Positions 40 to 47,073 of a DNA stretch of 47,073 nt are shown in pieces (the stretch's first letter is position 1; every line of letters begins with the position of its first letter). Made by a program: the position numbers and the translations under genes. The notes below the pieces were generated by a model. That model was not told the origin of the DNA. It worked only from the letters and a program-made list of their open reading frames with translations, and did no database searches. Source of the DNA: a virus (Duplodnaviria; Heunggongvirae; Uroviricota; Caudoviricetes); IMG/VR virus record IMGVR_UViG_2534682139_000016, positions 1 to 47,073 of that record. One strand, 5' to 3'.

Positions 40-402
40 GGGGCTGATTCTGGATTCGACGGGATTTGCGAAACCCAAGGTGCATGCCGAGGGGCGGTTG
101 GCCTCGTAAAAAGCCGCAAAAAATAGTCGCAAACGACGAAAACTACGCTTTAGCAGCTTAATAACCTGCTTAGAGCCCTCTCTCCCTAGCCTCCGCTCTT
201 AGGACGGGGATCAAGAGAGGTCAAACCCAAAAGAGATCGCGTGGAAGCCCTGCCTGGGGTTGAAGCGTTAAAACTTAATCAGGCTAGTTTGTTAGTGGCG
301 TGTCCGTCCGCAGCTGGCAAGCGAATGTAAAGACTGACTAAGCATGTAGTACCGAGGATGTAGGAATTTCGGACGCGGGTTCAACTCCCGCCAGCTCCAC
401 CA
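40..402 (+). ncRNA. ssrA: tmRNA (SsrA), full length ~363 nt
   Basis: Starts GGGGCTGATTCTGGATTCGACGGG; contains tag-peptide ORF GCAAACGACGAAAACTACGCTTTAGCAGCTTAATAA (ANDENYALAA*) at 131-166; ends with tRNA-like acceptor arm GGTTCAACTCCCGCCAGCTCCACCA. Confidence 0.95.
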
Positions 403-25925: not shown

Positions 25926-26398
25926 ACCTCAATCTCTCTGACCGTTCCGCCCGCTTCTTTGAATTTTGCAATCAGGCTGTCAGCCTTATGCTCGAACTGA
26001 CCATAACCAGCGCCCGGCAGTGAAGCCCAGATATTGCTGCAACGGTCGATTGCCTGACGAATATCGCCGCGGTCAATCATCGGTAAAGCGCCACGCTCTT
26101 TAATCTGCTGTAATGCCACTGAGTCCTGGCTTCTGGGAGAGAAGTCTTTCAGCCCAAGCTGCTTGCGGTAAGCATCCCACCAACGTGAAAGAAGTTGATA
26201 ACGGCCTGCAGCTGTTGATTTGAGTTTCGGGTTTAGCGTGACAAGTTTGCGAGGGTGATCGGAGTAATCAGTGAAGAGTTCGCCACCGACAATAACGTCA
26301 TAACCGTGGTTACGTGTCGGTTGTCGCCCGTTATCCGTTCCTTCTGACCATGCCACCATATCCAGGAAAGCTTTACGCTGGGAATTTAGTACCTGCAT
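25922..26398 (-). CDS. Endolysin, lambda R-like lytic transglycosylase
   Basis: ...[56 protein letters not shown]... close to my recollection of lambda R. Confidence 0.9.
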
Positions 26399-26401
26399 AA
26401 A

Positions 26402-26728
26402 TTACTCCTTAGAGCCACCAAACTTGTTACCGATTACTCTCATTGCAGCCCCACGAATAGCATCGACACCGATCAACCCAACGCCACCACCAATGGCAAC
26501 AGAAAGCGATTTAGGCCATCCGACATACTCAAGCGCGGATGCAAAGGTCAGCGTCAGAGCGCCACAGAGCAAAATCTCGAGCGTTTTTCTCTTCCAGCCA
26601 CCACCACCGCCAAAATAGGCAATGCGCAAGCCAGCCATAACGATCGACATAATCACTGCGCCCAGCGGTGTGTCTCCACGCCACCAGCTCTGGACCAACT
26701 CCAGCCAAGTATTTGGGTTATGAGGCAT
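26402..26728 (-). CDS. Putative holin
   Basis: 108 aa with hydrophobic segments, immediately upstream of endolysin. Confidence 0.55.
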   Translation of the reverse strand: MPHNPNTWLELVQSWWRGDTPLGAVIMSIVMAGLRIAYFGGGGGWKRKTLEILLCGALTLTFASALEYVGWPKSLSVAIGGGVGLIGVDAIRGAAMRVIGNKFGGSKE

Positions 26729-26871
26729 TTGTAGTTATCTCTCACCTCGCTGATACAGCAGGTGCAAATTGAGGAAACATCATGTACCGCAAATCAGAAG
26801 CGGAAACGTCAAAGAAGCCGAGCCAATGGATAACTGCGGGATAGACTAGGCCCAACGAATCCCCAGGCCCA

Positions 26872-26902
26872 GAAACGACAAAACCCGCTCGACGGCGGGT
26901 TT
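26872..26902 (-). terminator. Minus-strand intrinsic terminator upstream of the lysis genes (candidate tR'-like)
   Basis: Minus strand reads AAACCCGCC-GTCGA-GCGGGTTTTGTCGTTTC. Confidence 0.5.
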
Positions 26903-27019
26903 AAGCTGTGTGGCGAAGTAACCACTCTTAACACAATACAATACTTTTTGCGTACGCGTTAGTGTTTTGATAGAATTTTCAGCCACATAAAAATTCATTC
27001 TTATAATTCGGGATATATA

Positions 27020-28195
27020 ATGGATATAACTTGTTTAGAATGTGGCAATGTTCTTGACGACCCAACTGTAGCTTGCGATAAATGCGGTGCCACGCCTCAT
27101 GTTGTAGTGCTGGGCAAACAATCGTACTTTCCTATTGGTGCTGTAACAGCAAATCTTGAAAAAAATGATTCAAGAGCATTTGATTATCGATTAGGTGAAG
27201 TTTGGGATCTAAAAAATGAAGTCACATCTGAATTCATAACCAGAATTGAGAAAAAATTTAGCCGAAAAAACAAATTTCATAACTTCCTAGACTCAGATCA
27301 CAACCCTTCATCCATTCCTACGATCCTAAAAAAATACATTAATAAAAATAATGAATTCATTGATTTATCTAGAGCTATAATAGAGAAGCTTAAACATAAT
27401 GCTAATAACGAATCGAGAGTTGCCCAACTTCAGGGGGGGAGCGTTGTTTTCATCCACTATAAGTCTACCGAACCAGAGGATTTGGGGAAACTTCTAATCG
27501 TAATGGTTGATAAACAAAGCGCCTATGACTTTGATTCGGATAAGTTGACCCCAACAAGATTAAATCCAATTAATACCGATGCCTTACGGCAGGCTGCGAT
27601 GTTCGATTTAACTTTATTCGAAGCCAGTTATCCAGAAAACAAGGGTGACTCATATGTACATTTCTTGCAAGGTAAATCTAAAAGCGATTTTTTCAAAGAC
27701 TCATTAGGTTGCCGACATGATTCGGACAATAAAAGAAGCATTCAGCAATTATTCAGTGCTATAGATATTTTTGCTAGTAAAAACTCACTCGGTCGTGTAC
27801 TGCGTGATACTATTGACAATGAAGTTAAATCCTTACTGGAAAAAAAATCAAAAGATAAACACGGAAATAAGTCCGTTAAGATAGAGGATATTTCAAAAAT
27901 AATTGACTCATGCCTGACTGATTCACACAAATGTAAGGGAACGTTTGTCGATTTTGTTAATCTTAATGGTTTCCAGATTGACCCTCAATTTGAACCAACT
28001 CCTAAAGCAGCTGAAAGCGCGCTTACAATTGAAGTGGCAGATAACGACAATAATTTTAAGTTGAAAATAATGCGTGGAGCTATTGGAGACGAAAAGTCAA
28101 ATAAGCCTGTAATTCTCACTGACAACAAATGCGAAATTGTGATAAAATTGAGTCAGGCAAATTATGATGAACTCAAAAGATATAGAGACAGCTAA
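27020..28195 (+). CDS. Zinc-ribbon protein with NA37/YejK-like nucleic-acid-binding region (cargo gene 1)
   Basis: 391 aa; N-terminal CLECG...CDKCG zinc ribbon; central GGSVVFIHY...LLIVMVD...YVHFLQGKS...DFFKDSLG resembles the nucleoid-associated NA37 family from memory; AT-rich; TATAAT at 27002-27007. Confidence 0.7.
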   Translation: MDITCLECGNVLDDPTVACDKCGATPHVVVLGKQSYFPIGAVTANLEKNDSRAFDYRLGEVWDLKNEVTSEFITRIEKKFSRKNKFHNFLDSDHNPSSIPTILKKYINKNNEFIDLSRAIIEKLKHNANNESRVAQLQGGSVVFIHYKSTEPEDLGKLLIVMVDKQSAYDFDSDKLTPTRLNPINTDALRQAAMFDLTLFEASYPENKGDSYVHFLQGKSKSDFFKDSLGCRHDSDNKRSIQQLFSAIDIFASKNSLGRVLRDTIDNEVKSLLEKKSKDKHGNKSVKIEDISKIIDSCLTDSHKCKGTFVDFVNLNGFQIDPQFEPTPKAAESALTIEVADNDNNFKLKIMRGAIGDEKSNKPVILTDNKCEIVIKLSQANYDELKRYRDS

Positions 28196-28197
28196 TA

Positions 28198-29412
28198 ATG
28201 ACAATTGCTGATGACTTATCAAGATTAGCGCAGATTATTAACGGAGCCTCAAGCAGAGTTGAGGGCTACTACACTGTCATAAGTCTTGAAGAAAGCATTG
28301 TTATTGTAAATAGTTCTGAAATAATTAGACTGTTACAATCTATAGGTTATAAAAAGGCAACAACCTGCATCGAAAATAATGAAATTTGGCTAGATCGCCA
28401 AGCTTCATCTTGGGATGACGCTATAATTTATGAGAATGTTGAGTCTTTTTGGTCTAGAGTAAACACCCAAAACGCTCTTCCGAAAAATTATATCATCGGA
28501 ACGCCGTTAATACTCCCTACTTCTAAGAATGAAAGCATCGAAAAAATCCATATTTTCTTTATGTGGAAAGATATCCTTTCATTAATTGCTGATCATCATA
28601 ACAGTGACTGCTCTGTCTTATTTTTCACCAATGAAGACAAAAGTTATACAGTCGAACTCACGCATTTTTTACAATATAGCGAGATTAATCGCTTATCGAA
28701 CTCGTCTCTTAAATATGAAATTATAAAGGAGCTTCTCGACACAATAAAAATCAATGATTTACACAAAAGCGAGCGCAAGCTCGTTATACGCTCAGCCATA
28801 AACGAAGTATTTAAAGCAAATGGTACGTTCAATTTCTTTGACTTGCTTAACTCTACTGAACTCGTCAGGAAAAAATATGATGAACTATATGAGATTTACA
28901 CAAAGAGGTTTTCTGTAAATAAAATTCTTAACGAACTCGATGAGAAAAATCTTGAGTTCACGAGTAAAATTAACGAATTCATATCATCTAATCAGACAAA
29001 AGCATTGACTATTCCCGGTGCATTAATAGCTGCTGGTGGCTTAGTGAAGGCTAATGAAACAACCGAAGCAATATTGATTATCGCAGGACTTTGGATGATA
29101 AAAAAAGTCAATTACATTTCTATTGAGATATTCAATGAAACATTCGACAACTTACGTTCTCGAGTGGAGTCCGCTTTCGATAAGTATTTAAAGTTTGAAG
29201 AAAATAAAGAAATCAAAGATAATGCAGATAGTATTAAGAGTAGCATTACAGGTTTGATTGATAAAGCTAAAAAAAGGATGAGAACTGTTAAATATCTCGC
29301 ATCAGCCATGTTTTATGGAGGCCTTATTTACGTTGGATATAAACAGTTCCCAGTCTTTTTTGAAAAATCGGCAGTAAATCTATTTTATTTTTTATGCCAT
29401 ACTATAAGCTAA
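28198..29412 (+). CDS. Hypothetical protein with C-terminal hydrophobic helices (cargo gene 2)
   Basis: 404 aa; start 2 nt after gene 1 stop; hydrophobic stretches ALTIPGALIAAGGLV and YLASAMFYGGLIYVGY. Confidence 0.7.
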   Translation: MTIADDLSRLAQIINGASSRVEGYYTVISLEESIVIVNSSEIIRLLQSIGYKKATTCIENNEIWLDRQASSWDDAIIYENVESFWSRVNTQNALPKNYIIGTPLILPTSKNESIEKIHIFFMWKDILSLIADHHNSDCSVLFFTNEDKSYTVELTHFLQYSEINRLSNSSLKYEIIKELLDTIKINDLHKSERKLVIRSAINEVFKANGTFNFFDLLNSTELVRKKYDELYEIYTKRFSVNKILNELDEKNLEFTSKINEFISSNQTKALTIPGALIAAGGLVKANETTEAILIIAGLWMIKKVNYISIEIFNETFDNLRSRVESAFDKYLKFEENKEIKDNADSIKSSITGLIDKAKKRMRTVKYLASAMFYGGLIYVGYKQFPVFFEKSAVNLFYFLCHTIS

Positions 29413-29763
29413 CATTGCTAAACAGCCGTCAACAAACCCCATTGCAGTTTGCAGTTCCTTCCTAATTGTGCCATCAGAGCATTTTCTCTTCTTCGCAATA
29501 GTGCGTAATGAGATACCGATAACAAAGTGGGCGATGATGAGCTCATATTCCTCTGGTTTATACCTTCTCAACCGAGCCACACAACTGTCTATCATGATGC
29601 CTTCGTCATCATCACACTGAATCCGTGACTTTTTGCCATGAGGTAAAAGTCCCTTGAAACCAGCCGCTATCGGCTGCCAGTCCACTCCGCTATTGTCTGA
29701 AGCAGCCCAAGCTCCCCAACGATCCATTACTTCATACATATCACGCATCAACTTTCTCCACAA
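29392..29763 (-). CDS. Late-gene antiterminator Q-like protein
   Basis: 123 aa; Cys-containing, position at end of early-right operon. Confidence 0.6.
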   Translation of the reverse strand: MWRKLMRDMYEVMDRWGAWAASDNSGVDWQPIAAGFKGLLPHGKKSRIQCDDDEGIMIDSCVARLRRYKPEEYELIIAHFVIGISLRTIAKKRKCSDGTIRKELQTAMGFVDGCLAMLAYSMA

Positions 29764-29765
29764 AA

Positions 29766-30761
29766 TCAGGCCAGCACACCAATTGCCAGCGCACGATCGA
29801 TAAAACGAAATATCAACTCCAGCTGGGAGCCATACTTCTCTTCAAATGCCACGGTATCCGCATGCAGCTCGTCGTGATGCTTTCTGCACAAAGGCAACAC
29901 AAAGAGATCATGCGCTTTTGTACCCATTCCCCCCTGACCGTGGCCTATCAGATGGTGGGGATCATCAGCAGGCTTTCCACAACATGCACACGGCTGCGTC
30001 TTAACCCAGCGCGTGTACTTTTCATTAACCCAGCGGCGACGTTTTGGGCGTAACATAAAAGACTCCGGCGACTCCGGATCCACTTTCAGCGCCAGCACCT
30101 TTTTCGCCTTATCCTGGATGATGCTGGTGGCAGGAACCGAAGGCACAAGGTCACTTTCCCGGGTGACAGATGGCACAACAGGCTTCGGTAATCTCAGTGC
30201 CTTACGGGCTGCACTTTCCGGTAAGGCATCCGCCAGATCATTACGAACCAGCCACCAGCACAGTTCCGGCATTGTCACAACGTGACTGTCATCAAAACCG
30301 AGATCCCGACGCACGACAGACAACACCCAGCGGGCACAGTTATCCGTTGCCATTGATTCCAGCCGTTCCGTGAACTGGTCACGCAGCTGGTTATCGCAGT
30401 GCCAGCACAGACGAATTGCTCCCGGAGCGTGCCGCATTGTGGTCATGTTCTCGCTGTGCCAGTCAGAATGAGGCCACTGACAGCCCTTTTCACGAAGTAA
30501 CCAGCTTTCATGACATTCCACGCCACCAGCACGACGGATCACTGCCTCATTGCGGAACACGGTCCGAACGGCAGGATCATCCGCCAGCGGTTGTGTTGCC
30601 GCCGGAACGGCACCACTGGCGAAAGATGAATAACGTTCCGGCTCTGGCTCCAGCAGGACACGCCCCTGCATAAACAGGGGCATCAGCTCTGAACCTGGCC
30701 TGAACAATACGATCCCCATACGCGGGGCAATTTCAGGGGTCAGTAGTGCTCTCACGGTCAC
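29766..30761 (-). CDS. DUF968-like phage protein with C-terminal HNH-like Cys/His cluster
   Basis: CACCGKP...PHHLIGHGQGGMGTKAHD...CRKHHDELH. Confidence 0.55.
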   Translation of the reverse strand: MTVRALLTPEIAPRMGIVLFRPGSELMPLFMQGRVLLEPEPERYSSFASGAVPAATQPLADDPAVRTVFRNEAVIRRAGGVECHESWLLREKGCQWPHSDWHSENMTTMRHAPGAIRLCWHCDNQLRDQFTERLESMATDNCARWVLSVVRRDLGFDDSHVVTMPELCWWLVRNDLADALPESAARKALRLPKPVVPSVTRESDLVPSVPATSIIQDKAKKVLALKVDPESPESFMLRPKRRRWVNEKYTRWVKTQPCACCGKPADDPHHLIGHGQGGMGTKAHDLFVLPLCRKHHDELHADTVAFEEKYGSQLELIFRFIDRALAIGVLA

Positions 30762-30762
30762 C

Positions 30763-31560
30763 TCAATGAACGGTATCGAGTAGCTTTAACAGCTCAGGGA
30801 ATCGGGATTCGAAGAAATGCGGCTGCGTCTCGCGCGGATTTGCAGGACTGGTGATGTTCTTGCCGAACATGCAGCCTTTCGCCGTCAGCGACCAGAATTT
30901 TTTGATGTTGTTAATCGCGGTACGGCTGTATCGTTCGCGTTGTTCAACGATCCCCAGCTTCGCCATCTGGTGATATGCCTGATTAGCTGTCAGGCGGATA
31001 CCATACTGCTTCAGCAGTGCACTCAGTGACAGCGTGGGGCGGCTTGAGCCATCAGGCGCGTCAGCAGGAGCATCAATGGCATAGCGCGGTGCCAGATTCG
31101 GTAAGCCAACAGCCTCCTGGAGTTTCTGACAGGCACCAAGCACTGAAGAGTTAGACAGATTTAACTCCCGGCGCATAAAGTCCAGCAGGATCACGCCAGC
31201 CTGCATCTTGTCAGCAGCCTGCCCGGATAATTTTTCCGGTGTGCTGGTTACCATATCGAAAGTACGGATCACCTTCAGATGGAATGACGGGCTGATCCAC
31301 ATTGCATAGGCATACACCAGTTCTTTGCAGACATACGTCCCTTGGTTATTTCCGCCACGAATAACGTTAACTGGCGCCATATTGACCGAGTTGCAAATTT
31401 GCAACTCGCTTATTAAACGTTCGGTTTGCTCATTGCGGAGCCAGAATGCAGGCTTATGTTTATCCAGAGAACCGGCAGCCCTGTGCAGATCGTTCAGGCT
31501 GTAACGCCCATAAGCATCACGACGAACTTCAATACCATCAATAACCATCAGATTATTCAT
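30763..31560 (-). CDS. KilA-N domain protein / putative antirepressor
   Basis: N-terminus MNNLMVIDGIEVRRDAYGRYSLNDLHRAAG typical of KilA-N. Confidence 0.55.
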   Translation of the reverse strand: MNNLMVIDGIEVRRDAYGRYSLNDLHRAAGSLDKHKPAFWLRNEQTERLISELQICNSVNMAPVNVIRGGNNQGTYVCKELVYAYAMWISPSFHLKVIRTFDMVTSTPEKLSGQAADKMQAGVILLDFMRRELNLSNSSVLGACQKLQEAVGLPNLAPRYAIDAPADAPDGSSRPTLSLSALLKQYGIRLTANQAYHQMAKLGIVEQRERYSRTAINNIKKFWSLTAKGCMFGKNITSPANPRETQPHFFESRFPELLKLLDTVH

Positions 31561-33436: not shown

Positions 33437-34374
33437 CCCCTGAATCCTGCCGGGATCTGGCTGTAGTCCACGTTGTCGTAACTGGATTTGAAATATGGGT
33501 CTTCGCGTTTTTCTGTGTATGTGCTGATGGACGGCGATAAGCGCAGGGAAAGCTCATCCCATTTTTCCCGCAGCTTCGACGGGCTGAGCACGTTACGGCA
33601 CCAGAACGGATCGCGACTGACGCGGCTGTACATCTCGCAGATTTGTTTATGATTACGACCATCCTGCACACACATCAGGCGAATTTCGTTTGCCCAGGCT
33701 GTCCAGTTCGGTTCTTTGGGACGAACCACCTCGCCGTCACATTCGGCGGCCTGCTCGTACAGGGCGATGATTTTTTTCCAGAGCCACTGTGCGCAGGTCA
33801 AATCATCCTGCGTTCCCCACTGGCGCTTTTTAGGGCTGAATACAACCGCATCAGGATGGCGAGTTAAAAAATCCTGTTCATCCGTCTGCGTGTCCGGTTG
33901 CGAAGCGTCCGGACGAGAAGGTTTTTTATCTGACGGATCATGTTTTGATTTTACTGACGGATCCCCGCCAGATTCTGACGGGTGAAAACCCGCTTTTTTG
34001 CCAGATTTCGACGCATCAAATTTTGACGGGTCAGATTTTGATGCGTCAGATTTTGACGGGTCAGAATCTGACAGTTGAGAAAATGCCGCTGCCTGAAGCT
34101 TCGCAACGTTAAGCTGATAAACATTCGACGCATTGCGGTTACCCTGGCGACGCGCCTTACGCGTTAACCAGCCTTCTGCTTCCAGCCGTGCGATAGCCGT
34201 CCTGACGGTACTCATCCCCGCGCCAATCTGACGGGCAATAGTTTCAATTGATGGCCAGCACACACCTTCGTCATTACTGAAATCAGCCAGGCGGGCCATA
34301 ATTGCCACGCTGGATAATTTCATGCCTGATGCAGCGCAACCATCCCATACATAGCCGGTTAATTTAGTGCTCAT
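33433..34374 (-). CDS. Replication initiation protein (lambda O-like N-terminal winged helix) with internal repeat region
   Basis: ...SIETIARQIGAGMSTVRTAIARLEAEGWL...; central repeated peptide DPSKSDASKSDPSKFDASKS encoded by DNA iterons. Confidence 0.65.
   Translation of the reverse strand: MSTKLTGYVWDGCAASGMKLSSVAIMARLADFSNDEGVCWPSIETIARQIGAGMSTVRTAIARLEAEGWLTRKARRQGNRNASNVYQLNVAKLQAAAFSQLSDSDPSKSDASKSDPSKFDASKSGKKAGFHPSESGGDPSVKSKHDPSDKKPSRPDASQPDTQTDEQDFLTRHPDAVVFSPKKRQWGTQDDLTCAQWLWKKIIALYEQAAECDGEVVRPKEPNWTAWANEIRLMCVQDGRNHKQICEMYSRVSRDPFWCRNVLSPSKLREKWDELSLRLSPSISTYTEKREDPYFKSSYDNVDYSQIPAGFRG
33970..34080. repeat. Tandem iteron-like direct repeats (candidate replication origin inside the O-like gene)
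   Basis: Repeated units of the form (T)CAGATTTTGA(C/T)G(G/C)GT... four or more times across 33970-34080. Confidence 0.55.
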
Positions 34375-35605: not shown

Positions 35606-36232
35606 ATGGAAACGGTTGGTCAGCGTATAAAAGCTCTGAGAAGAGTTACCGGAACGTCCCAGAAAGAATTGGGTAAATTTTGTGGAGTAAGCGACGTTGC
35701 TGTGGGGTACTGGGAGAAAGACATCAATACCCCTGGTGGGGAGGCACTTTCGAAATTAGCGAAGTTCTTCAATACGTCAATAGATTACATTCTTTATGGT
35801 GCTGAGTTTGAAGGCAAACTCGTCACAAACATGCGCAGAGTTCCTGTAATATCGTGGGTTCAGGCTGGGCAGTTTACTGAGTGCAGGGCAGCAGAAGTGT
35901 TTAGTGAAGTGGACAAGTGGGTAGATACATCATTAAAGATTGGTGATAACTCATTTGCATTAGAGGTTAAAGGTGACTCCATGACTAACCCTAATGGCCT
36001 CCCAACAATACCAGAAGGCGCAACAGTGATTGTAGATCCAGATGCAGAACCTCGTCATGGAAAAATAGTCATCGCTCGACTTGATGGAACAAACGAAGCT
36101 ACAGTAAAAAAATTAGTCATCGATGGCCCTCAAAAGTTTTTAGTGCCATTAAATCCTCGGTATCCCAACATCCCTATCAATGGTAATTGCCTTATCATTG
36201 GTGTAGTCAAAGGAGTTCAATACGAACTCTAA
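35606..36232 (+). CDS. CI-type repressor (HTH_XRE + S24 LexA-like peptidase domain)
   Basis: N-terminal HTH (QKELGKFCGVSDVAVGYWE), C-terminal GDSM...KIVIARLDG...KKL autocleavage motifs. Confidence 0.85.
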   Translation: METVGQRIKALRRVTGTSQKELGKFCGVSDVAVGYWEKDINTPGGEALSKLAKFFNTSIDYILYGAEFEGKLVTNMRRVPVISWVQAGQFTECRAAEVFSEVDKWVDTSLKIGDNSFALEVKGDSMTNPNGLPTIPEGATVIVDPDAEPRHGKIVIARLDGTNEATVKKLVIDGPQKFLVPLNPRYPNIPINGNCLIIGVVKGVQYEL

Positions 36233-36438
36233 GACCTCTCTTCTCTAACTAAGGCACCGAACTAAGAAAAGTTTGGTGTTTTCTCTTGCCATAATAACTA
36301 AGTTAAGTTAGATTTTATATCAAAGATAACGAACAGGCAGGACGCCCACGAAGTAGCCGCCTGGGGCATATGAAGTCCAGGATGATTCGTTGAGTCATGT
36401 TGTGCCATCAGGCACTCATGTTAAAGCAGGTGTATGAA

Positions 36439-36714
36439 ATGAAAGTCCAGATTTTAAACAATAACTGTGAAGTCGTTTGGTCATACGACATAGCCGCCCC
36501 TGTAGATCAGAGCGGCGATAGCTGGACCAATGGGAAACATCAGATTATGGCTGGAGTTGTGTTCTCTTTACGCCGTGCTTTGGAACAGGCTGAAGTATTT
36601 CCATCAGACCCTGAATGGAAATGGCCTTTTTCTATTTGTCCAAATTCGGAGAGCACATTTCAGAAAATTGGTCAGAAAGTCGCACTCGAAGAGCATCAGC
36701 CAACTGTTTCCTGA
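36439..36714 (+). CDS. Small hypothetical protein downstream of cI
   Basis: ORF from MKVQILNN..., weak. Confidence 0.3.
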   Translation: MKVQILNNNCEVVWSYDIAAPVDQSGDSWTNGKHQIMAGVVFSLRRALEQAEVFPSDPEWKWPFSICPNSESTFQKIGQKVALEEHQPTVS

Positions 36715-36877
36715 TTTTTTCAGGTAACTCGTCGGCATCGCAGAAACAACAACGCTCGATCATGTTGAAAGCCGATTCGTAGAACCGTTTCTGCTGAGTG
36801 TCGCTGAGACAGGAAAAGAGTGACGTTACGATGATTTTATTAATTGCATTATCAAGTTCTTTTTCATCAAAAGTCAT
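36632..36877 (-). CDS. Small hypothetical protein
   Basis: 81 aa, Cys-rich (CCFCD). Confidence 0.3.
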   Translation of the reverse strand: MTFDEKELDNAINKIIVTSLFSCLSDTQQKRFYESAFNMIERCCFCDADELPEKIRKQLADALRVRLSDQFSEMCSPNLDK

Positions 36878-37177
36878 TTGATTTTCCTTTTATGTATACG
36901 GGCTTAAAAGGATACCACCGAGCCTGAAGTGGTGAAAAGACAGGCACATAACAGCTAAGTATTTTCAACCAAAGAGAATCCTTAGCGTTGTGGTGAATGC
37001 GGCTCAGCGCACGCGGGTTAAGGTTGAGGCTGACAGTCGACCTTCTGTGGATACCCACCCGTCTGGTGTGCAACCTTCGCCAGGCACCGGGAGGCACCCG
37101 GCACCACAACTTTATGCTGTGTGTAGTCCTGGCGGTACCAGTTTGTACCCTTGCTTCCGGCTGGTAGCGTCCTTTTT

Positions 37178-37266
37178 ACAAAACAGAGAAGAGCATCACC
37201 GGACGACGGGCTCATAACCCAATCCATCCGGGCGGCTGCCACCGCAGGTGTTCTTCTCTGTTTTGT
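37178..37266 (+). other. Long imperfect hairpin in GC-rich non-coding leader (candidate structured RNA/regulatory element)
   Basis: ACAAAACAGAGAAGAGCATCACC (37178-37200) pairs with GGTGTTCTTCTCTGTTTTGT (37247-37266), about 19 bp, 46-nt loop. Confidence 0.35.
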
Positions 37267-37314
37267 GGAGAAACTAATCGGCCTTGCAGGGTCGATATGA
37301 TGAGGAGCAGCAAA

Positions 37315-37677
37315 ATGGCTAGCGAACGCAGTACTGATGTGCAGGCATTTATCGGGGAGCTGGACGGCGGCGTATTTGAAACCAAAATCGGCGCAGTTCT
37401 CAGTGAAGTCGCTTCCGGTGTGATGAACACGAAAACCAAAGGTAAGGTCTCACTCAACCTGGAAATCGAACCATTTGATGAGAACCGTGTGAAAATCAAA
37501 CACAAACTCTCATATGTTCGCCCGACTAACCGCGGGAAAATTTCTGAAGAAGACACCACCGAAACGCCGATGTATGTCAATCGCGGTGGTCGCCTGACTA
37601 TTCTGCAGGAAGACCAGGGACAATTACTGACTCTTGCCGGTGAACCTGACGGAAAACTCCGCGCAGCAGGTCATTAA
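37315..37677 (+). CDS. YfdP-like prophage protein
   Basis: Start placed at MASERS (AGGAG 8 nt upstream); first gene of a yfdPQRST-like block. Confidence 0.5.
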   Translation: MASERSTDVQAFIGELDGGVFETKIGAVLSEVASGVMNTKTKGKVSLNLEIEPFDENRVKIKHKLSYVRPTNRGKISEEDTTETPMYVNRGGRLTILQEDQGQLLTLAGEPDGKLRAAGH

Positions 37678-37741
37678 TATCGTTTTTAATTAACTGATTA
37701 TTTATCTCATCACTGAATATTTTATATAGTGAGGACTTATT

Positions 37742-38566
37742 ATGTCTCAGAACTTAGACGCAACCGCAATTAATCAAATCCATGCCCTTATTTCTGCTCA
37801 GGGTGTTAATGAAATTATCAGTAAGATTGGTGCCGACGCAGTGGCATTACCTGAAAATTTCCGCATTCATGATCTGGAAAAATTTAATTTAAATCGCTTC
37901 CGTTTCCGTGGTGCGCTTTCCACTGCCAGCATCGATGACTTTACCCGTTATTCTAAAGATCTTGCAGATGAAGGCACCCGCTGCTTTATCGATGCTGATA
38001 ATATGCGTGCCGTCAGTGTGCTTAACCTGGGTACTATTGATGAACCAGGTCACGCAGATAACACCGCCACTCTCAAACTGAAAAAGGCAGCGCCGTTCTC
38101 TGCTCTGTTGTCTGTTAATGGCGAGCGTAACTCCCAGAAGTCACTGGCAGAATGGATTGAAGACTGGGCCGACTACCTTGTGGGCTTTGATGCTAATGGT
38201 GACACCATTCAGGCAACAAAAGCGGCTGCGGCGGTCCGTAAAATCACGATTGAAGCAAACCAGACTGCTGATTTTGAAGATAATGACTTCAGCGGCAAAC
38301 GCTCCCTGATGGAGTCTGTCGAAGCGAAGACCAAAGACATTATGCCAGTGGCATTTGAGTTTAAATGCGTTCCGTTTGAAGGTCTGAAAGAACGTCCGTT
38401 TAAATTACGCCTCAGCATTATCACTGGCGATCGTCCGGTACTGGTTCTACGCATTATTCAGCTGGAAGCGGTGCAGGAAGATATGGCTAACGAATTTCGT
38501 GATCTGCTTGTTGAGAAATTCAAGGACAGCAAAGTAGAAACCTTTATTGGGACTTTCACCGCCTGA
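37742..38566 (+). CDS. YfdQ-like (DUF2303) prophage protein
   Basis: 274 aa; synteny with HD-domain gene; resemblance from memory. Confidence 0.55.
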
Positions 38567-43658: not shown

Positions 43659-44888
43659 ATGGCAAAAATCGCTAAGAAGCTCACTGACACTGAAATCAAA
43701 AGCACCAAGCCAGCCGATAAAGAAATCAACTTGTTTGACAGTGATGGTCTGATTCTACGAATCGCTCCTTTGGCGAAAGGAGGCAAGAAAAATTGGTATT
43801 TCAGGTATGCAGTACCAGTGAGCAAGAAAAGAACCAAAATGAGCCTTGGGACATATCCTCACCTTACCCTTGCAAGAGCCAGAGCCTTACGTGATGAATA
43901 TCTCTCCTTTCTGGCAAATGGTGTTGATCCCCAAATCCATAACAACGATAAGGCGAAGGCATTAAAGAGTGCTACTGAGCACACTCTCCAAGCCGTAGCG
44001 CGGAAATGGTTAGATGAGAAGGTAAAGACATCAGGTATCTCACAAGACCATGCAGCAGACATCTGGCGCAGCTTAGAGAGAAATGTCTTTCCCGGTCTGG
44101 GTAATGTCCCTATCAATGAGATCCGACCTAAGCTCTTAAAACAACACCTTGATCCTATTGAGCAACGAGGCGTATTGGAAACTCTACGCCGTATCATTTC
44201 ACGTCTGAATGAAATCTTCCGGTGGGCAGCTACTGAAGAACTTATTGAGTTCAACCCGGCTGACAACCTTGGTCAAAGATTCAGTAAACCAAAAAAGCAA
44301 AATATGCCTGCCCTTCCCCCAAGCGAATTGCCAAGGTTTATGGAATCTTTGACGAATGCGTCAATCCGGTTGGAAACACGTATGCTAATTGAATGGCAAT
44401 TGTTGACATGGGTTCGTCCGGGTGAAGCCGTTCGCGCAAGGTGGTCTGATATTGATACAACCAACAGCATTTGGAACATTCCTGCTGATTTCATGAAAAT
44501 GAAAAAGCTTCACAAAGTTCCTTTGAGTAAAGAAGCTTTGCGCATCCTTGAATTAATGAAATCAATAAGTGGGCATAGAGAATGGGTTTTCCCCAGCATA
44601 AAAGCGCCTCTTAATCATATGCATGAACAAACAGCCAACGCAGCTATCATCCGAATGGGGTTCGGAGGCGAGCTTGTAGCTCACGGTATGCGTTCTATTG
44701 CACGAACAGCGGCAGAGGAGTCTGGTAAATTCAGAGCTGAAGTTCTTGAGGCAGCGCTTGCCCACTCGAAAAAAGATGAAATTATCGCAGCATACAATCG
44801 TGCAGAATATCTGATAGAGCGACAGAGTTTGATGCAATGGTGGAGTGATTACGTTCAAGCTCAAAGATCAAATGCTCTGGTAGCCTAA
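43659..44888 (+). CDS. P4-type (IntA-like) tyrosine integrase
   Basis: MAKIAKKLTDTEIKSTKP... and ...DIWRSLER...MQWWSDY... parallel CP4-57 IntA from memory; begins ~166 bp after the ssrA fragment. Confidence 0.85.
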   Translation: MAKIAKKLTDTEIKSTKPADKEINLFDSDGLILRIAPLAKGGKKNWYFRYAVPVSKKRTKMSLGTYPHLTLARARALRDEYLSFLANGVDPQIHNNDKAKALKSATEHTLQAVARKWLDEKVKTSGISQDHAADIWRSLERNVFPGLGNVPINEIRPKLLKQHLDPIEQRGVLETLRRIISRLNEIFRWAATEELIEFNPADNLGQRFSKPKKQNMPALPPSELPRFMESLTNASIRLETRMLIEWQLLTWVRPGEAVRARWSDIDTTNSIWNIPADFMKMKKLHKVPLSKEALRILELMKSISGHREWVFPSIKAPLNHMHEQTANAAIIRMGFGGELVAHGMRSIARTAAEESGKFRAEVLEAALAHSKKDEIIAAYNRAEYLIERQSLMQWWSDYVQAQRSNALVA

Positions 44889-44926: not shown

Positions 44927-45343
44927 ATGGAAACCCTATTCAAAGTTTTTGAAAAATTTAGTTCCAGACCACTTTTTTTTATTTTTTTCGGACTCTCACT
45001 TTGTGAATTTTTTCAGAAACAATCTGTTCTGATGAATCCATCAGCAGATAACATCGCGAAATTATTCGCAGCCATGATATTAGTTGTTTTTTTTACTTGG
45101 GGATTTGAATGGCTAATCTTCAAGTTCAATGTAAACCTTGAACCTCATGATCAAGGCGATATTGGACCAACAATTGGAACGGCTACTTTAGCTGTATACT
45201 TAGTTTATGCCTTTCACTTTCTCAGTGAAAATCCTGAAGCATTAAATTTAAAGTTATTAACTAACTCTGGCTTTATATACAGCACAACTCTATTATTATT
45301 CTCATTAGAATGCATGAAGCTTAGAAGACTTAAACAAAAATAA
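44927..45343 (+). CDS. Hypothetical polytopic membrane protein
   Basis: 138 aa, 3-4 hydrophobic helices, AT-rich. Confidence 0.45.
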   Translation: METLFKVFEKFSSRPLFFIFFGLSLCEFFQKQSVLMNPSADNIAKLFAAMILVVFFTWGFEWLIFKFNVNLEPHDQGDIGPTIGTATLAVYLVYAFHFLSENPEALNLKLLTNSGFIYSTTLLLFSLECMKLRRLKQK

Positions 45344-45859: not shown

Positions 45860-46186
45860 ATGACTAAAAATACTCGTTTTTCCCCCGAAGTCCGTCAGCG
45901 GGCGATTCGTATGGTTCTGGAAAGTCAGGATGAATATGACTCACAGTGGGCGGCAATTTGTTCCATTGCCCCAAAGATTGGCTGTACGCCGGAGACTCTG
46001 CGTGTCTGGGTTCGCCAGCATGAGCGGGATACCGGGAGTGGTGATGGTGGACTCACCACCGCTGAACGTCAGCGTCTGAAAGAGCTGGAACGTGAAAATC
46101 GTGAACTGCGCCGCAGTAACGATATCCTTCGCCAGGCTTCCGCTTATTTTGCGAAGGCGGAGTTCGACCGCCTCTGGAAAAAATAA
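45860..46186 (+). CDS. IS3-family transposase OrfA (HTH)
   Basis: [21 protein letters not shown]... leucine-zipper C-terminus. Confidence 0.9.
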
Positions 46187-47073
46187 TGCCACTGCTGGAT
46201 AAGCTGCGTGAGCAGTACGGGGTCGGACCGGTATGCAGCGAACTGCATATTGCCCCGTCAACGTATTACCATTGTCAGCAACAGCGACATCATCCGGATA
46301 AACGCAGTGCCCGTGCGCAGCACGATGACTGGCTGAAGAAAGAGATACAGCGCGTATACGATGAAAATCACCAGGTATACGGTGTGCGTAAAGTCTGGCG
46401 TCAGTTGTTACGGGAAGGTATCAGAGTGGCCAGATGCACTGTGGCACGTCTCATGGCAGTTATGGGACTTGCCGGTGTTCTCCGGGGTAAAAAGGTCCGC
46501 ACTACCGTCAGCCGGAAAGCCGTTGCCGCATGCGACCGCGTAAACCGTCAGTTCGTGGCAGAACGTCCAGACCAGTTGTGGGTGGCTGATTTTACCTGGG
46601 TAAGCACATGGCAGGGCTTCGTTTATGTGGCGTTCATCATTGATGTGTTCGCCGGATACATCGTGGGATGGCAGGTCTCATCATCCATGGAAACAACATT
46701 CGTGCTGGATGCACTGGAGCAGGCGTTGTGGGCCCGTCGGCCGTCCGGCACAATCCATCACAGTGATAAAGGTTCTCAGTATGTATCGCTGGCCTACACG
46801 CAGCGGCTTAAGGAAGCCGGATTACTGGCATCAACAGGGAGTACTGGCGACTCGTATGACAACGCGATGGCTGAGAGCATCAATGGTCTTTACAAAGCGG
46901 AGGTAATACACCGTAAGAGCTGGAAAAACCGGACAGAAGTGGAACAGGCCACACTAACGTGGGTGGACTGGTATAACAATCGACGATTGCTGGAAAGGCT
47001 GGGCCATATTCCTCCGGCAGAAGCAGAAAAAGCTTATTATGCTTCCATCGGAAATAATGATCTGGCAGCCTGA
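46186..47073 (+). CDS. IS3-family transposase OrfB (DDE catalytic domain)
   Basis: -1 frame relative to OrfA with A-run (GGAAAAAATAATG) at the junction; DDE region ...HSDKGSQYVS... Confidence 0.9.
   Translation: MPLLDKLREQYGVGPVCSELHIAPSTYYHCQQQRHHPDKRSARAQHDDWLKKEIQRVYDENHQVYGVRKVWRQLLREGIRVARCTVARLMAVMGLAGVLRGKKVRTTVSRKAVAACDRVNRQFVAERPDQLWVADFTWVSTWQGFVYVAFIIDVFAGYIVGWQVSSSMETTFVLDALEQALWARRPSGTIHHSDKGSQYVSLAYTQRLKEAGLLASTGSTGDSYDNAMAESINGLYKAEVIHRKSWKNRTEVEQATLTWVDWYNNRRLLERLGHIPPAEAEKAYYASIGNNDLAA

Follow-up and report, generated by a model that had tools for sequence, protein, structure and literature searches.

The DNA analysed here is a 47,073-nt stretch from a tailed phage (Caudoviricetes; positions 1–47,073 of IMG/VR record IMGVR_UViG_2534682139_000016), and this whole stretch is called the window. 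Between its immunity region and its yfdPQRST-like genes lies a block of about 330 bp (36960–37296). An earlier note, made from the sequence alone, described the block as GC-rich and non-coding and pointed to a long inverted repeat within it. Two separate conserved RNA units are present here on the plus strand. The upstream unit consists of a domain of the STnc100/PasD type (module 1), a single-stranded linker and an intrinsic terminator (T1), and the downstream unit consists of a long hairpin with a three-way junction (hairpin 2) and a smaller GC-rich hairpin (H3) in front of the yfdP-like gene. Three points were missed in the earlier note: its upstream GC hairpin is part of a small-RNA superfamily already known from prophages, an intrinsic terminator divides two independent modules, and the long hairpin itself is a widespread conserved motif.

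The composition and the position given in the earlier note were both borne out. In segments of 200 nt, the G+C content is 0.535–0.575 over 36900–37399, compared with 0.375–0.455 over 36200–36999 and 0.35–0.39 over 37600–37899. On one side, the immunity region contains a repressor gene with cI-like helix–turn–helix and peptidase S24 domains (35606–36232, assigned by domain matches) and a cro-like gene on the strand opposite to it. On the other side, a yfdP-like gene, whose product matches phrog_204, starts on the plus strand at ATG 37315, and SfV orf32 is annotated from the same ATG. Its Shine–Dalgarno sequence GAGGAG (37302–37307, plus strand) was read from the sequence. A YfdQ/DUF2303 gene is located at 37742–38566. 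The region of the block is 99.8% identical to Shigella phage SfV. The SfV annotation under this match contains only a putative terminator (window 36865–36897), and the repeat and the GC hairpins are unannotated. The block, whole or in part, is found in 2785 of 5426 complete Escherichia coli genomes, and also in phages of Shigella, Salmonella, Klebsiella, Cronobacter and Citrobacter. The fold of 36960–37300 on the plus strand has a z score of −4.3 against shuffled sequences.

The earlier note had suggested an Rfam scan. At the gathering threshold, only a transfer-messenger RNA (tmRNA) and an ALIL pseudoknot were detected in the whole window, and no hit was obtained in the block. A permissive scan, however, gave RF02076 (STnc100) as the top match at 36965–37180, with 34.1 bits and E = 1.3e-5 over the full model (1–206). 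The 21-nt core CACCGGGAGGCACCCGGCACC occurs exactly at 37085–37105, with 0 occurrences expected by chance. The STnc100 core CACCGGGAGGCACCCGGCACCA is also present in the window copy, together with the closing helix UGGUG/CACCA and the AAU junction.

Viral contigs (denoted below by L numbers where no phage name is used) were scanned for the exact core CCGGGAGGCACCCGGCACC. The scan gave at least 120 loci and at least 140 instances, with at least 110 unique cores and at least 42 clusters at 85% identity. Copies with P2 = CCCCCUGUGCGGAGGGG (subfamily A, the classical copies) exceed the Rfam cut-off with 57–132 bits, whereas the copies of the window type, with P2 = GCGGCUCAGCGCACGC, stay below it. 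A covariance model, R1, was built from a MAFFT alignment of 34 diverged copies. R1 finds a single match in the window, with 82.8 bits and E = 3.5e-18, and no second copy of module 1 is present in the window. R1 also matches elsewhere, including the copy in phage HK639.

Module 1 (36986–37112, plus strand) is delimited by the sub-threshold RF02076 match, by R1 and by covariation. It is closed by the helix P1 (36987–36995 with 37102–37110). The junction AAU (36996–36998) leads to the hairpin P2 (36999–37014), which has a bulged A at 37011. P4 is formed between 37061–37068 and 37078–37085, and P5 (37087–37101) carries the loop AGGCA. The P5 hairpin, CCGGGAGGCACCCGG, is the short GC hairpin that had been noted upstream of the inverted repeat. 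A pseudoknot is formed between AAGGUUG (37020–37026) and CAACCUU (37071–37077).

The covariation of P1, P2, P4 and P5 was scored on the unfitted MAFFT alignment of 34 representatives and compared with column shuffles. In these helices 87.7% of the cells are paired, compared with 77.3% in the shuffles. The covariation score is 0.317 against 0.131, and none of the 500 shuffles reached the observed value. With the 3' partners slid by 1–3 columns as a control, the score was at most 0.125. The pairs of P1 are 95% paired, and three positions covary, for example with G-C in 23 sequences and A-U in 9. In P2, three of five pairs change from C-G to G-C between the subfamilies, with the register, the loop and the bulged A kept. 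In a third subfamily (LLS, Eeyore, L200, L173 and L166), the P5 stem CCGGG/CCCGG is replaced by GGUGG/CCACC and the loop AGGCA is kept. The loops and junctions are highly conserved, namely AAU, U-N-N-G-C, the bulged A and AGGCA.

The two strands of the pseudoknot are a segment of 5–11 nt directly behind P2 and the loop of P4. The duplex is found elsewhere with other sequences: AAGGCUG with CAGCCUU in phiES15, and AGACUGACAAA with UUUGUCAGUCU in L019. Among 42 representatives, 34 different duplexes are present. The mean length of the complementary run is 6.43 within a sequence, compared with 4.54 ± 0.16 when the loops are permuted among sequences, and 0 of 20,000 permutations reached the observed mean. 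The pseudoknot is absent from the consensus structure line of STnc100 in Rfam and from the preprint on the Pas RNAs.

To judge from its sequence, module 1 belongs to the STnc100/PasD superfamily of prophage small RNAs, within which it forms a new divergent subfamily with newly recognised structural features. It resembles RF02076 STnc100 and PasD in the closing helix UGGUG/CACCA, in the AAU junction, and in a P2 with the U-N-N-G-C loop and the bulged A. The invariant core, the variable middle, the linker followed by an intrinsic terminator, and the residence in lambdoid prophages are likewise shared. The window copy differs in its sub-threshold score, in the inversion of three of the five P2 pairs and in having no promoter of its own. 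In many subfamily-A copies, by contrast, a sigma-70 promoter of the form TTGACA-17/18-TAAATT ends 5–8 nt before P1. A promoter heuristic applied across the representatives was unreliable, and only the clear cases were used. The surroundings also differ: the window copy lies in the early-left leader past the repressor gene, whereas the classical STnc100 copies are late-region elements with Q, tRNA genes, stx2 or lysis genes nearby.

Members of the family have been detected as RNAs in other strains. Eleven copies in E. coli EDL933 are expressed with low ribosome coverage, and a Northern blot confirmed one of them (PMC5331693). Downstream of stx2, the copy overlaps EcOnc27/sRNA103, a small RNA bound by Hfq (PMC12711010). 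PasD is a small RNA of enteropathogenic E. coli found by Hfq RIL-seq and reported to be related to STnc100 (bioRxiv 10.64898/2026.05.13.724894). Tandem arrays of 4–5 STnc100 copies are located beside phage tRNA genes in three contigs (L017 2265–3380; L074 4349–5513 and 8357–8555; L009 8044–8560), and an isrI-like RNA is present in the regions of these arrays. In HK639 (L128 44809–44925), the STnc100 domain lies between Q and the holin gene and is flanked by annotated terminators at 44715–44736 and 44954–44981.

Module 1 is followed by a single-stranded linker of 18 nt (37113–37130, plus strand). Its core UGCUGUGUGUAGUC (37115–37128) is a candidate seed. The core is conserved in the subfamily of the window copy, and it is kept in ST64B, phiES15, phiNP, LLS, L134, L200 and L173 even where the flanking helices differ. 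Within the window, the complement of the linker is found at chance level only. The terminator T1 (37131–37177, plus strand) has a 12-bp stem (37131–37171) and a U-tract (37173–37177), and its fold has a calculated energy of −16.4 kcal/mol. Terminators are present at the same position, with unrelated stem sequences, in phiES15, LLS, ST64B, phiNP and L099. The stem is UGCCCGC...GCGGGC followed by U7 in phiES15 and UGCCCAUC...GGUGGGCA in LLS, and it is long in ST64B. A terminator-like hairpin follows the domain in 30 of the 42 representatives, compared with 13% of the shuffles. By analogy with known examples, this combination of a 5' domain, a conserved single strand and a U-tailed terminator is the anatomy of an Hfq-type small RNA.

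The inverted repeat of the earlier note had been placed at 37178–37200 with 37247–37266, with a loop of 46 nt. The feature itself was confirmed, and its extent and loop size were revised: the arms are 37178–37202 and 37242–37266 (25 nt each, 84% complementary), and the spacer is 39 nt. This slightly longer repeat belongs to hairpin 2 (37178–37266, plus strand), a three-way junction with a basal stem of about 19 bp and two side arms, arm A (37199–37231) and arm B (37232–37245). Arm A is closed by CCGGR/YCCGG. Arm B is a variable GCGG...CCGC hairpin, which tolerates insertions of about 25 nt. The fold of 37170–37275 has an energy of −51.2 kcal/mol, compared with −25.8 ± 3.3 kcal/mol for dinucleotide shuffles (z = −7.8, with 0 of 200 as stable).

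Relatives of hairpin 2 were collected by a degenerate core scan of viral contigs, which gave at least 120 loci, at least 105 unique sequences and at least 34 clusters. In the unfitted alignment of 18 representatives, 94.8% of the cells are paired, and seven pairs are changed on both sides. In covariation, the alignment scores 0.159 and the shuffles 0.092 (0 of 500 reach the observed value), and the slid versions score at most 0.054. Thus, covariation analysis across homologous prophages, which the earlier note had suggested, supports every helix tested in the two modules. In the paired cells of hairpin 2, 35 G·U and 8 A·C combinations are observed, and this excess of G·U assigns the RNA to the plus strand. 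The folding energy does not decide the strand, because it is nearly equal on both strands (mean −43.4 and −42.8 kcal/mol). Similarly, the model R2 of hairpin 2 matches the window with 106.5 bits and the reverse strand with 40.8 bits. The plus-strand covariation and the excess of G·U over A·C agree with the proposal of the earlier note that the block is a structured RNA or a transcriptional leader instead of coding sequence.

Hairpin 2 is single-copy at each locus, and one copy is present in the window. A T-run lies directly 5' of the hairpin in 115 of the 117 unique contexts among the matches listed, which indicates that hairpin 2 is normally fused to a terminator. Only 49 of these 117 listed contexts contain a P5 like that of STnc100, and the two modules are therefore separable. 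The gene after hairpin 2 varies and can be a yfdP-like gene, xisE or at least three others. In L202, a repressor gene is followed by a terminator and by palindromic operators with a promoter-like site, and hairpin 2 lies about 20 nt further on; T1 and the cassette are not present there. This order suggests that hairpin 2 is the basic element of the early-left leader, into which the other modules were inserted. Hairpin 2 is not in Rfam, and we found no description of this conserved motif, which is apparently undescribed.

The small hairpin H3 (37277–37296, plus strand) is GC-rich, has a loop of the UGCAG type and lies just 5' of the ribosome-binding site. Its stem covaries among the relatives (CGACC/GGUCG, GGCGG/CCGCC and GCGCC/GGCGU), and the loop is similar whichever gene lies downstream. 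H3 followed by a Shine–Dalgarno sequence is present in all versions of the hairpin 2 locus.

The apex of arm A, CGGGCUCAUAACCC (37207–37220), is identical to the anticodon stem-loop of the E. coli initiator tRNA-fMet, with three G-C pairs and the loop CUCAUAA. The tRNA sequence was verified against E. coli genomes, in which it matches the tRNA-Met gene with 100% identity and a median of four copies per genome, and papers on tRNA-fMet contain the same string. Among the matches listed, the loop CUCAUAA is present in 82 of the 105 unique hairpin 2 sequences and CAU in 103 of the 105, with that base left free in the search pattern. We report this likeness as an observation. Possible partners are toxins of the VapC type, the ribosomal P site with initiation factor 3 (IF3), methionyl-tRNA synthetase (MetRS), or an AUG by pairing.

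A promoter-like site of the plus strand, TTGCCA-17-TAGATT, is located at 36286–36314. It is the only such plus-strand site that the promoter scan found in 36200–37500, and it is overlapped by an operator-like palindrome (36298–36311). The 47-kb window contains three copies of the palindrome CTAAG-N4-CTTAG: two (35521 and 35570) lie between the cro-like and cI-like genes, and the third is the one at 36298–36311. According to these features, the site is a probable early-left promoter (PL-like). If this reading of the promoter holds, the block would lie 650–1000 nt into the early-left transcript, past a small ymfJ-like open reading frame (ORF) and ahead of yfdP. The early-left operon and the cI repressor gene have the same orientation. 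The element likewise lies 3' of a cI-type repressor gene, with the orientation kept, and 5' of the first early-left gene in SfV, ST64B, 118970_sal3, phiES15, a Klebsiella phage, L011, L099 and the e14 element of E. coli K-12. The genes after the element are kil and a gam-like gene in phiES15, and xisE and intE in e14. No N gene is annotated in the lambdoid phages examined with the element in the early-left leader.

Just upstream of the block, a conserved 46-nt segment (36909–36954) contains the inverted repeat ACCAC-N10-GTGGT and could bind a regulator or act as a weak promoter. Klebsiella phages share it at about 95% identity in spite of otherwise unrelated flanks, and in these phages, too, an STnc100-like domain follows just downstream. 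Copies are also found in e14 and phage 118970_sal3. In the window, the segment is placed after the start of a divergent minus-strand ORF and before the RNA domain.

We consider it fairly probable that the block is the untranslated early-left leader of the plus strand, in which two independent conserved RNA units follow one another: an attenuating unit of the small-RNA type (unit 1) and a unit in the 5' untranslated region (5' UTR) of the first gene (unit 2). Unit 1 (36986–37177) comprises the domain of about 125 nt closed by a helix of 7–9 bp, the 18-nt single strand and T1. Transcription would start at the operator-controlled promoter at 36286–36314, about 650 nt upstream of unit 1. Some polymerases would stop at T1, and a small RNA of the Hfq type with a U-tail would be released, with the linker core as its probable pairing region. 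The 5' end of this RNA would probably arise by processing at the acceptor-like helix P1, because the subfamily of the window copy has no promoter of its own, unless a promoter is present that is not visible to us. Partial termination at T1 would at the same time attenuate the entry of polymerases into the yfdP operon. Unit 2 (37178–37296), with hairpin 2 and with H3 beside the ribosome-binding site, would be the actual 5' UTR of the first early-left gene. It may act in cis on the read-through transcripts through processing, stability or translation, and the initiator-tRNA-like loop would be the likely contact point.

Several points weigh against this interpretation. The score of the window copy (34.1 bits) is below the gathering score of 47 for RF02076. 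The evidence for expression in the family comes from other copies, outside the subfamily of the window copy. No convincing promoter adjoining module 1 was found by the scan or by eye, and the 5' end of the putative small RNA is conjectural. The candidate early-left promoter is a 9-of-12 match to the consensus with one operator-like site. If T1 is efficient, the downstream operon needs a read-through mechanism that the interpretation does not provide; the strong terminators that precede kil/gam in phiES15 and xis/int in e14 suggest that more than leakiness is involved. The cis role of hairpin 2 is our proposal. Finally, the identity with tRNA-fMet extends over 14 nt only and was noticed post hoc.

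With this divergent subfamily, the STnc100 family of small RNAs is found in the immunity and early-left region as well as beside Shiga toxin and lysis genes. Mutations downstream of stx2 that were reported as predictive of haemolytic uraemic syndrome fall on one STnc100 member (PMC12711010). The pseudoknot and the tRNA-like layout described below are the first testable structural ideas for the STnc100 family, and the initiator-tRNA-like loop is a biochemical entry point. The unit of a terminator and a hairpin ahead of the xis/int, kil/gam and yfdP operons bears on the question of how early terminators are passed in phages without N. Although the block is widespread, its annotations, where there are any, are hypothetical proteins, such as ymfH in K-12.

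The main rival to the leader with two units is that one of the RNAs has a put-like or factor-dependent role. Here the element would be a cis-acting processive antiterminator RNA like put of HK022 and HK639: unit 1 or hairpin 2 would bind the polymerase and allow read-through of T1 and of later terminators, replacing N. We regard this as rather unlikely. The setting is suitable, since lambdoid phages without an annotated N gene carry this structured RNA in their early-left leader, and strong terminators lie directly before genes that are needed (kil/gam in phiES15 and xisE-intE in e14). In L202, hairpin 2 lies about 20 nt past the predicted PL start, as putL does in HK022, and many subfamily-A copies begin a few nucleotides after their sigma-70 promoter. 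On the other hand, the RNAs themselves do not agree. The Rfam scan gave no STnc100 hit in the immunity region of HK022 (26000–31000), and R1 and R2 have no match at the put sites of HK022 or HK639. The annotated putL-like RNA of HK639 (34187–34312) is unrelated by eye, and the STnc100 copy of HK639, between Q and the holin gene, is separate from it. The put RNAs (putL and putR of HK022, and the putL-like RNA of HK639) have no similarity in sequence or structure to the window modules: put RNAs consist of two stem-loops, whereas the window modules are a three-way junction and a pseudoknotted domain. The window modules are single copies, and each phage region has one copy without a left/right pair. 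The nearest terminator usually precedes hairpin 2 and does not follow it. Since hairpin 2 lies past T1, it cannot suppress T1. Furthermore, family members accumulate in lysogens as terminated RNAs of about 160–210 nt (PMC5331693), which argues against constitutive read-through of the own terminator.

The N leader of lambda (nutL and the RNase III-sensitive hairpin 5' of the N ribosome-binding site) provides another comparison. In both cases, the early-left promoter is followed by a long and nearly perfect hairpin, which precedes the ribosome-binding site of the first gene. By analogy, the stem of hairpin 2, about 20 bp, could be a substrate of RNase III. In contrast to lambda, there is neither a boxB-type hairpin with an N gene nor an N homologue. 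The 3' arm of hairpin 2 (window 37243–37252) reads UGCUCUU(C/U)U in most copies and resembles boxA (UGCUCUUUA); the window copy has UGUUCUUCU. This boxA-like stretch is base-paired in the stem of hairpin 2, and a NusB/S10 site therefore seems unlikely.

Mimicry of tRNA as the function of the two RNAs is doubtful to nearly the same degree. In this proposal, unit 1 would be a tRNA-derived scaffold cut by RNase P, and hairpin 2 would show the anticodon arm of the initiator as a decoy, a sensor or a translation signal. The partners proposed are the VapC/MvpT toxins that cleave this loop, the 30S P site with IF3, and MetRS. The proposal is compatible with the leader of two units and sharpens it. 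P1 has seven pairs in most copies and is continuous with the 5-bp P5, so that 12 stacked pairs are formed like the acceptor and T arms of a tRNA. P2 begins three nucleotides past P1, at the place of the D arm. In L220 (1077–1203, minus strand), the same P1 (GUUGUGG/CCACAAC) encloses a different RNA, for which the Rfam tRNA model gives 43.9 bits with a cut-off of 29. This RNA has true D and T arms, and an insert of 64 nt with a GGUUCAUAACC hairpin replaces the anticodon arm; no ARAGORN call was obtained. L220 shares the linker, T1 and hairpin 2 with the window. The slot closed by P1 holds other contents in L154, L134 and mEp460. RNase P is known to process phage regulatory RNAs (C4 of P1 and P7, CI of P4, and M3 of phi80). 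The tRNA-like shape of module 1 is thus a lead, which would explain a 5' end made by RNase P. The likeness to tRNA and to these phage RNAs consists in the acceptor-like helix on a 5-bp hairpin, the copy of the anticodon arm in hairpin 2 with the retained CAU, and the tRNA-like RNA in the slot of L220.

Other features differ from tRNA. ARAGORN called only the tmRNA in the window, and the Rfam tRNA model (RF00005) gave no hit at E up to 10 in 36700–37500. The loop of P5, at the place of the T loop, has 5 nt instead of 7, and no CCA follows P1. In hairpin 2, three stem pairs and the loop are mimicked and no more, and the likeness was seen post hoc. Some variants of hairpin 2 have a U at the position equivalent to 37 of tRNA, and to our knowledge no real tRNA has U at this position. 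An additional cassette with T-arm-like elements is present upstream in 118970_sal3, phiNP and several contigs (L004 at about 2550–2680, L007, L139 and L134). It contains the T-arm-like hairpin GGTTCGATTCC and the hairpin GTCCGTTCAATTCGGAC, and is closed by GAGAGCA/UGCUCUC.

A bolder reading combines these likenesses, and we offer it as a speculation that is unlikely to be correct. Hairpin 2 would be a new class of phage leader RNA that engages a partner specific for tRNA-fMet and serves as a decoy or sensor at the early-left entry of prophages of the SfV, ST64B and e14 types, and the STnc100/PasD RNAs would be pseudoknotted scaffolds of tRNA origin, with ends generated by the enzymes that process tRNA. 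If this were true, tRNA mimics would make up the early-left control region in numerous enterobacterial prophages, a group found in about half of the complete E. coli genomes.

An attenuator that senses a factor or a ligand is improbable. The pseudoknotted domain would then be the aptamer for a metabolite, a protein or a tRNA, and its occupancy would set termination at T1. The layout of a conserved domain, a short linker and an intrinsic terminator corresponds to that of transcriptional riboswitches and is found throughout the family, the loops and junctions are highly conserved, and the element lies ahead of operons that need conditional expression. The test for switching was negative, however. 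Pairing of the linker or domain with the 5' arm of the terminator, as an alternative to the terminator stem, amounts to 4.96 within sequences, compared with 4.99 ± 0.14 when permuted. As no conserved alternative pairing with the terminator is present, a classical riboswitch is ruled against. In addition, the tandem arrays of 4–5 copies in late regions and the binding of Hfq are more suitable for small-RNA genes, and we can propose no ligand.

It is very improbable that the block encodes a protein or is a decayed coding remnant, that is, a relative of YmfH of K-12 or of PHROG 3651 and 33599. In favour of a gene, RefSeq annotates ymfH (103 amino acids) over the homologous e14 sequence, and several phage records annotate hypothetical proteins here. 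ORFs of 49–80 amino acids overlap the block on both strands. Among the ORFs, 37018–37242 (minus strand) matches phrog_3651 with E = 3e-49, and 37151–37300 (plus strand) matches phrog_33599 with E = 1e-15. However, among the 42 diverged representatives of the upstream domain, no reading frame spans the element uninterrupted in more than 4. Insertions and deletions, including the length differences among hairpin 2 relatives, are not multiples of three, and Pfam has no match for the ORFs over the block. Conservation follows base-pairing and not codons. The phrog_3651 profile (162 amino acids) would run antisense through the conserved yfdP gene. Thus, the judgement of the earlier note that a convincing ORF is lacking was upheld, and the decayed remnant that it had named as an alternative fails on the conserved-frame result. 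The two PHROG families are best explained, most simply, as ORF calls over a conserved RNA.

In e14, ymfH (L133 2579–2890) coincides exactly with a copy of module 1, T1 and hairpin 2 that has decayed; this copy is 90% identical to the window and is located upstream of xisE-intE. P5 of this copy is damaged by a deletion and a substitution. The ymfH frame ends elsewhere in the window copy, in spite of this identity. Thus, ymfH is probably not a protein gene. We found no functional data on ymfH in the literature; the gene belongs to the co-regulated set of e14. A preprint lists a ymfH clone among the triggers of the retron-Sen2 toxin. Should that result hold, the RNA could be responsible for the effect of the ymfH clone.

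A DNA-level element (an operator, a cruciform, or a site of recombination or replication) or a retron msr/msd is the least probable explanation of the long inverted repeat: the similar folding energies of hairpin 2 on both strands and the reverse-strand match of R2 are compatible with it, and anticodon-arm sequences serve as integrase core sites in some phages, but the 35 G·U against 8 A·C combinations in paired positions and the orientation fixed relative to T1 and the downstream gene in 117 of 117 contexts among the matches listed speak against it, and arms of about 20 bp, 40–70 nt apart with structured covarying side arms, are not operator-like. The prophage adjoins the tmRNA gene and e14 integrates in icd, so that the hairpin site is not the attachment site. 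The retron, which the earlier note had considered and set aside, was also rejected here: the neighbours are the repressor gene, ymfJ/ymfI-like ORFs and yfdP/yfdQ/yfdR-like genes, and no reverse transcriptase gene adjoins the element in the window or in any relative examined.

Some minor features of the window were also recorded. Two convergent and overlapping ORFs, 36397–36714 (plus strand) and 36632–36877 (minus strand), match PHROG 3195 and PHROG 3311, respectively, which are families without an assigned function. They mirror the overlapping ymfJ and ymfI of e14, and the minus-strand ORF has a good Shine–Dalgarno sequence. A complete tmRNA gene (295.8 bits) is located at the left end of the window (40–402), and the SfV-like prophage therefore adjoins ssrA. 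Near the right end of the window, the ALIL pseudoknot, a frameshift element of the IS3 family, is located at 46141–46257.

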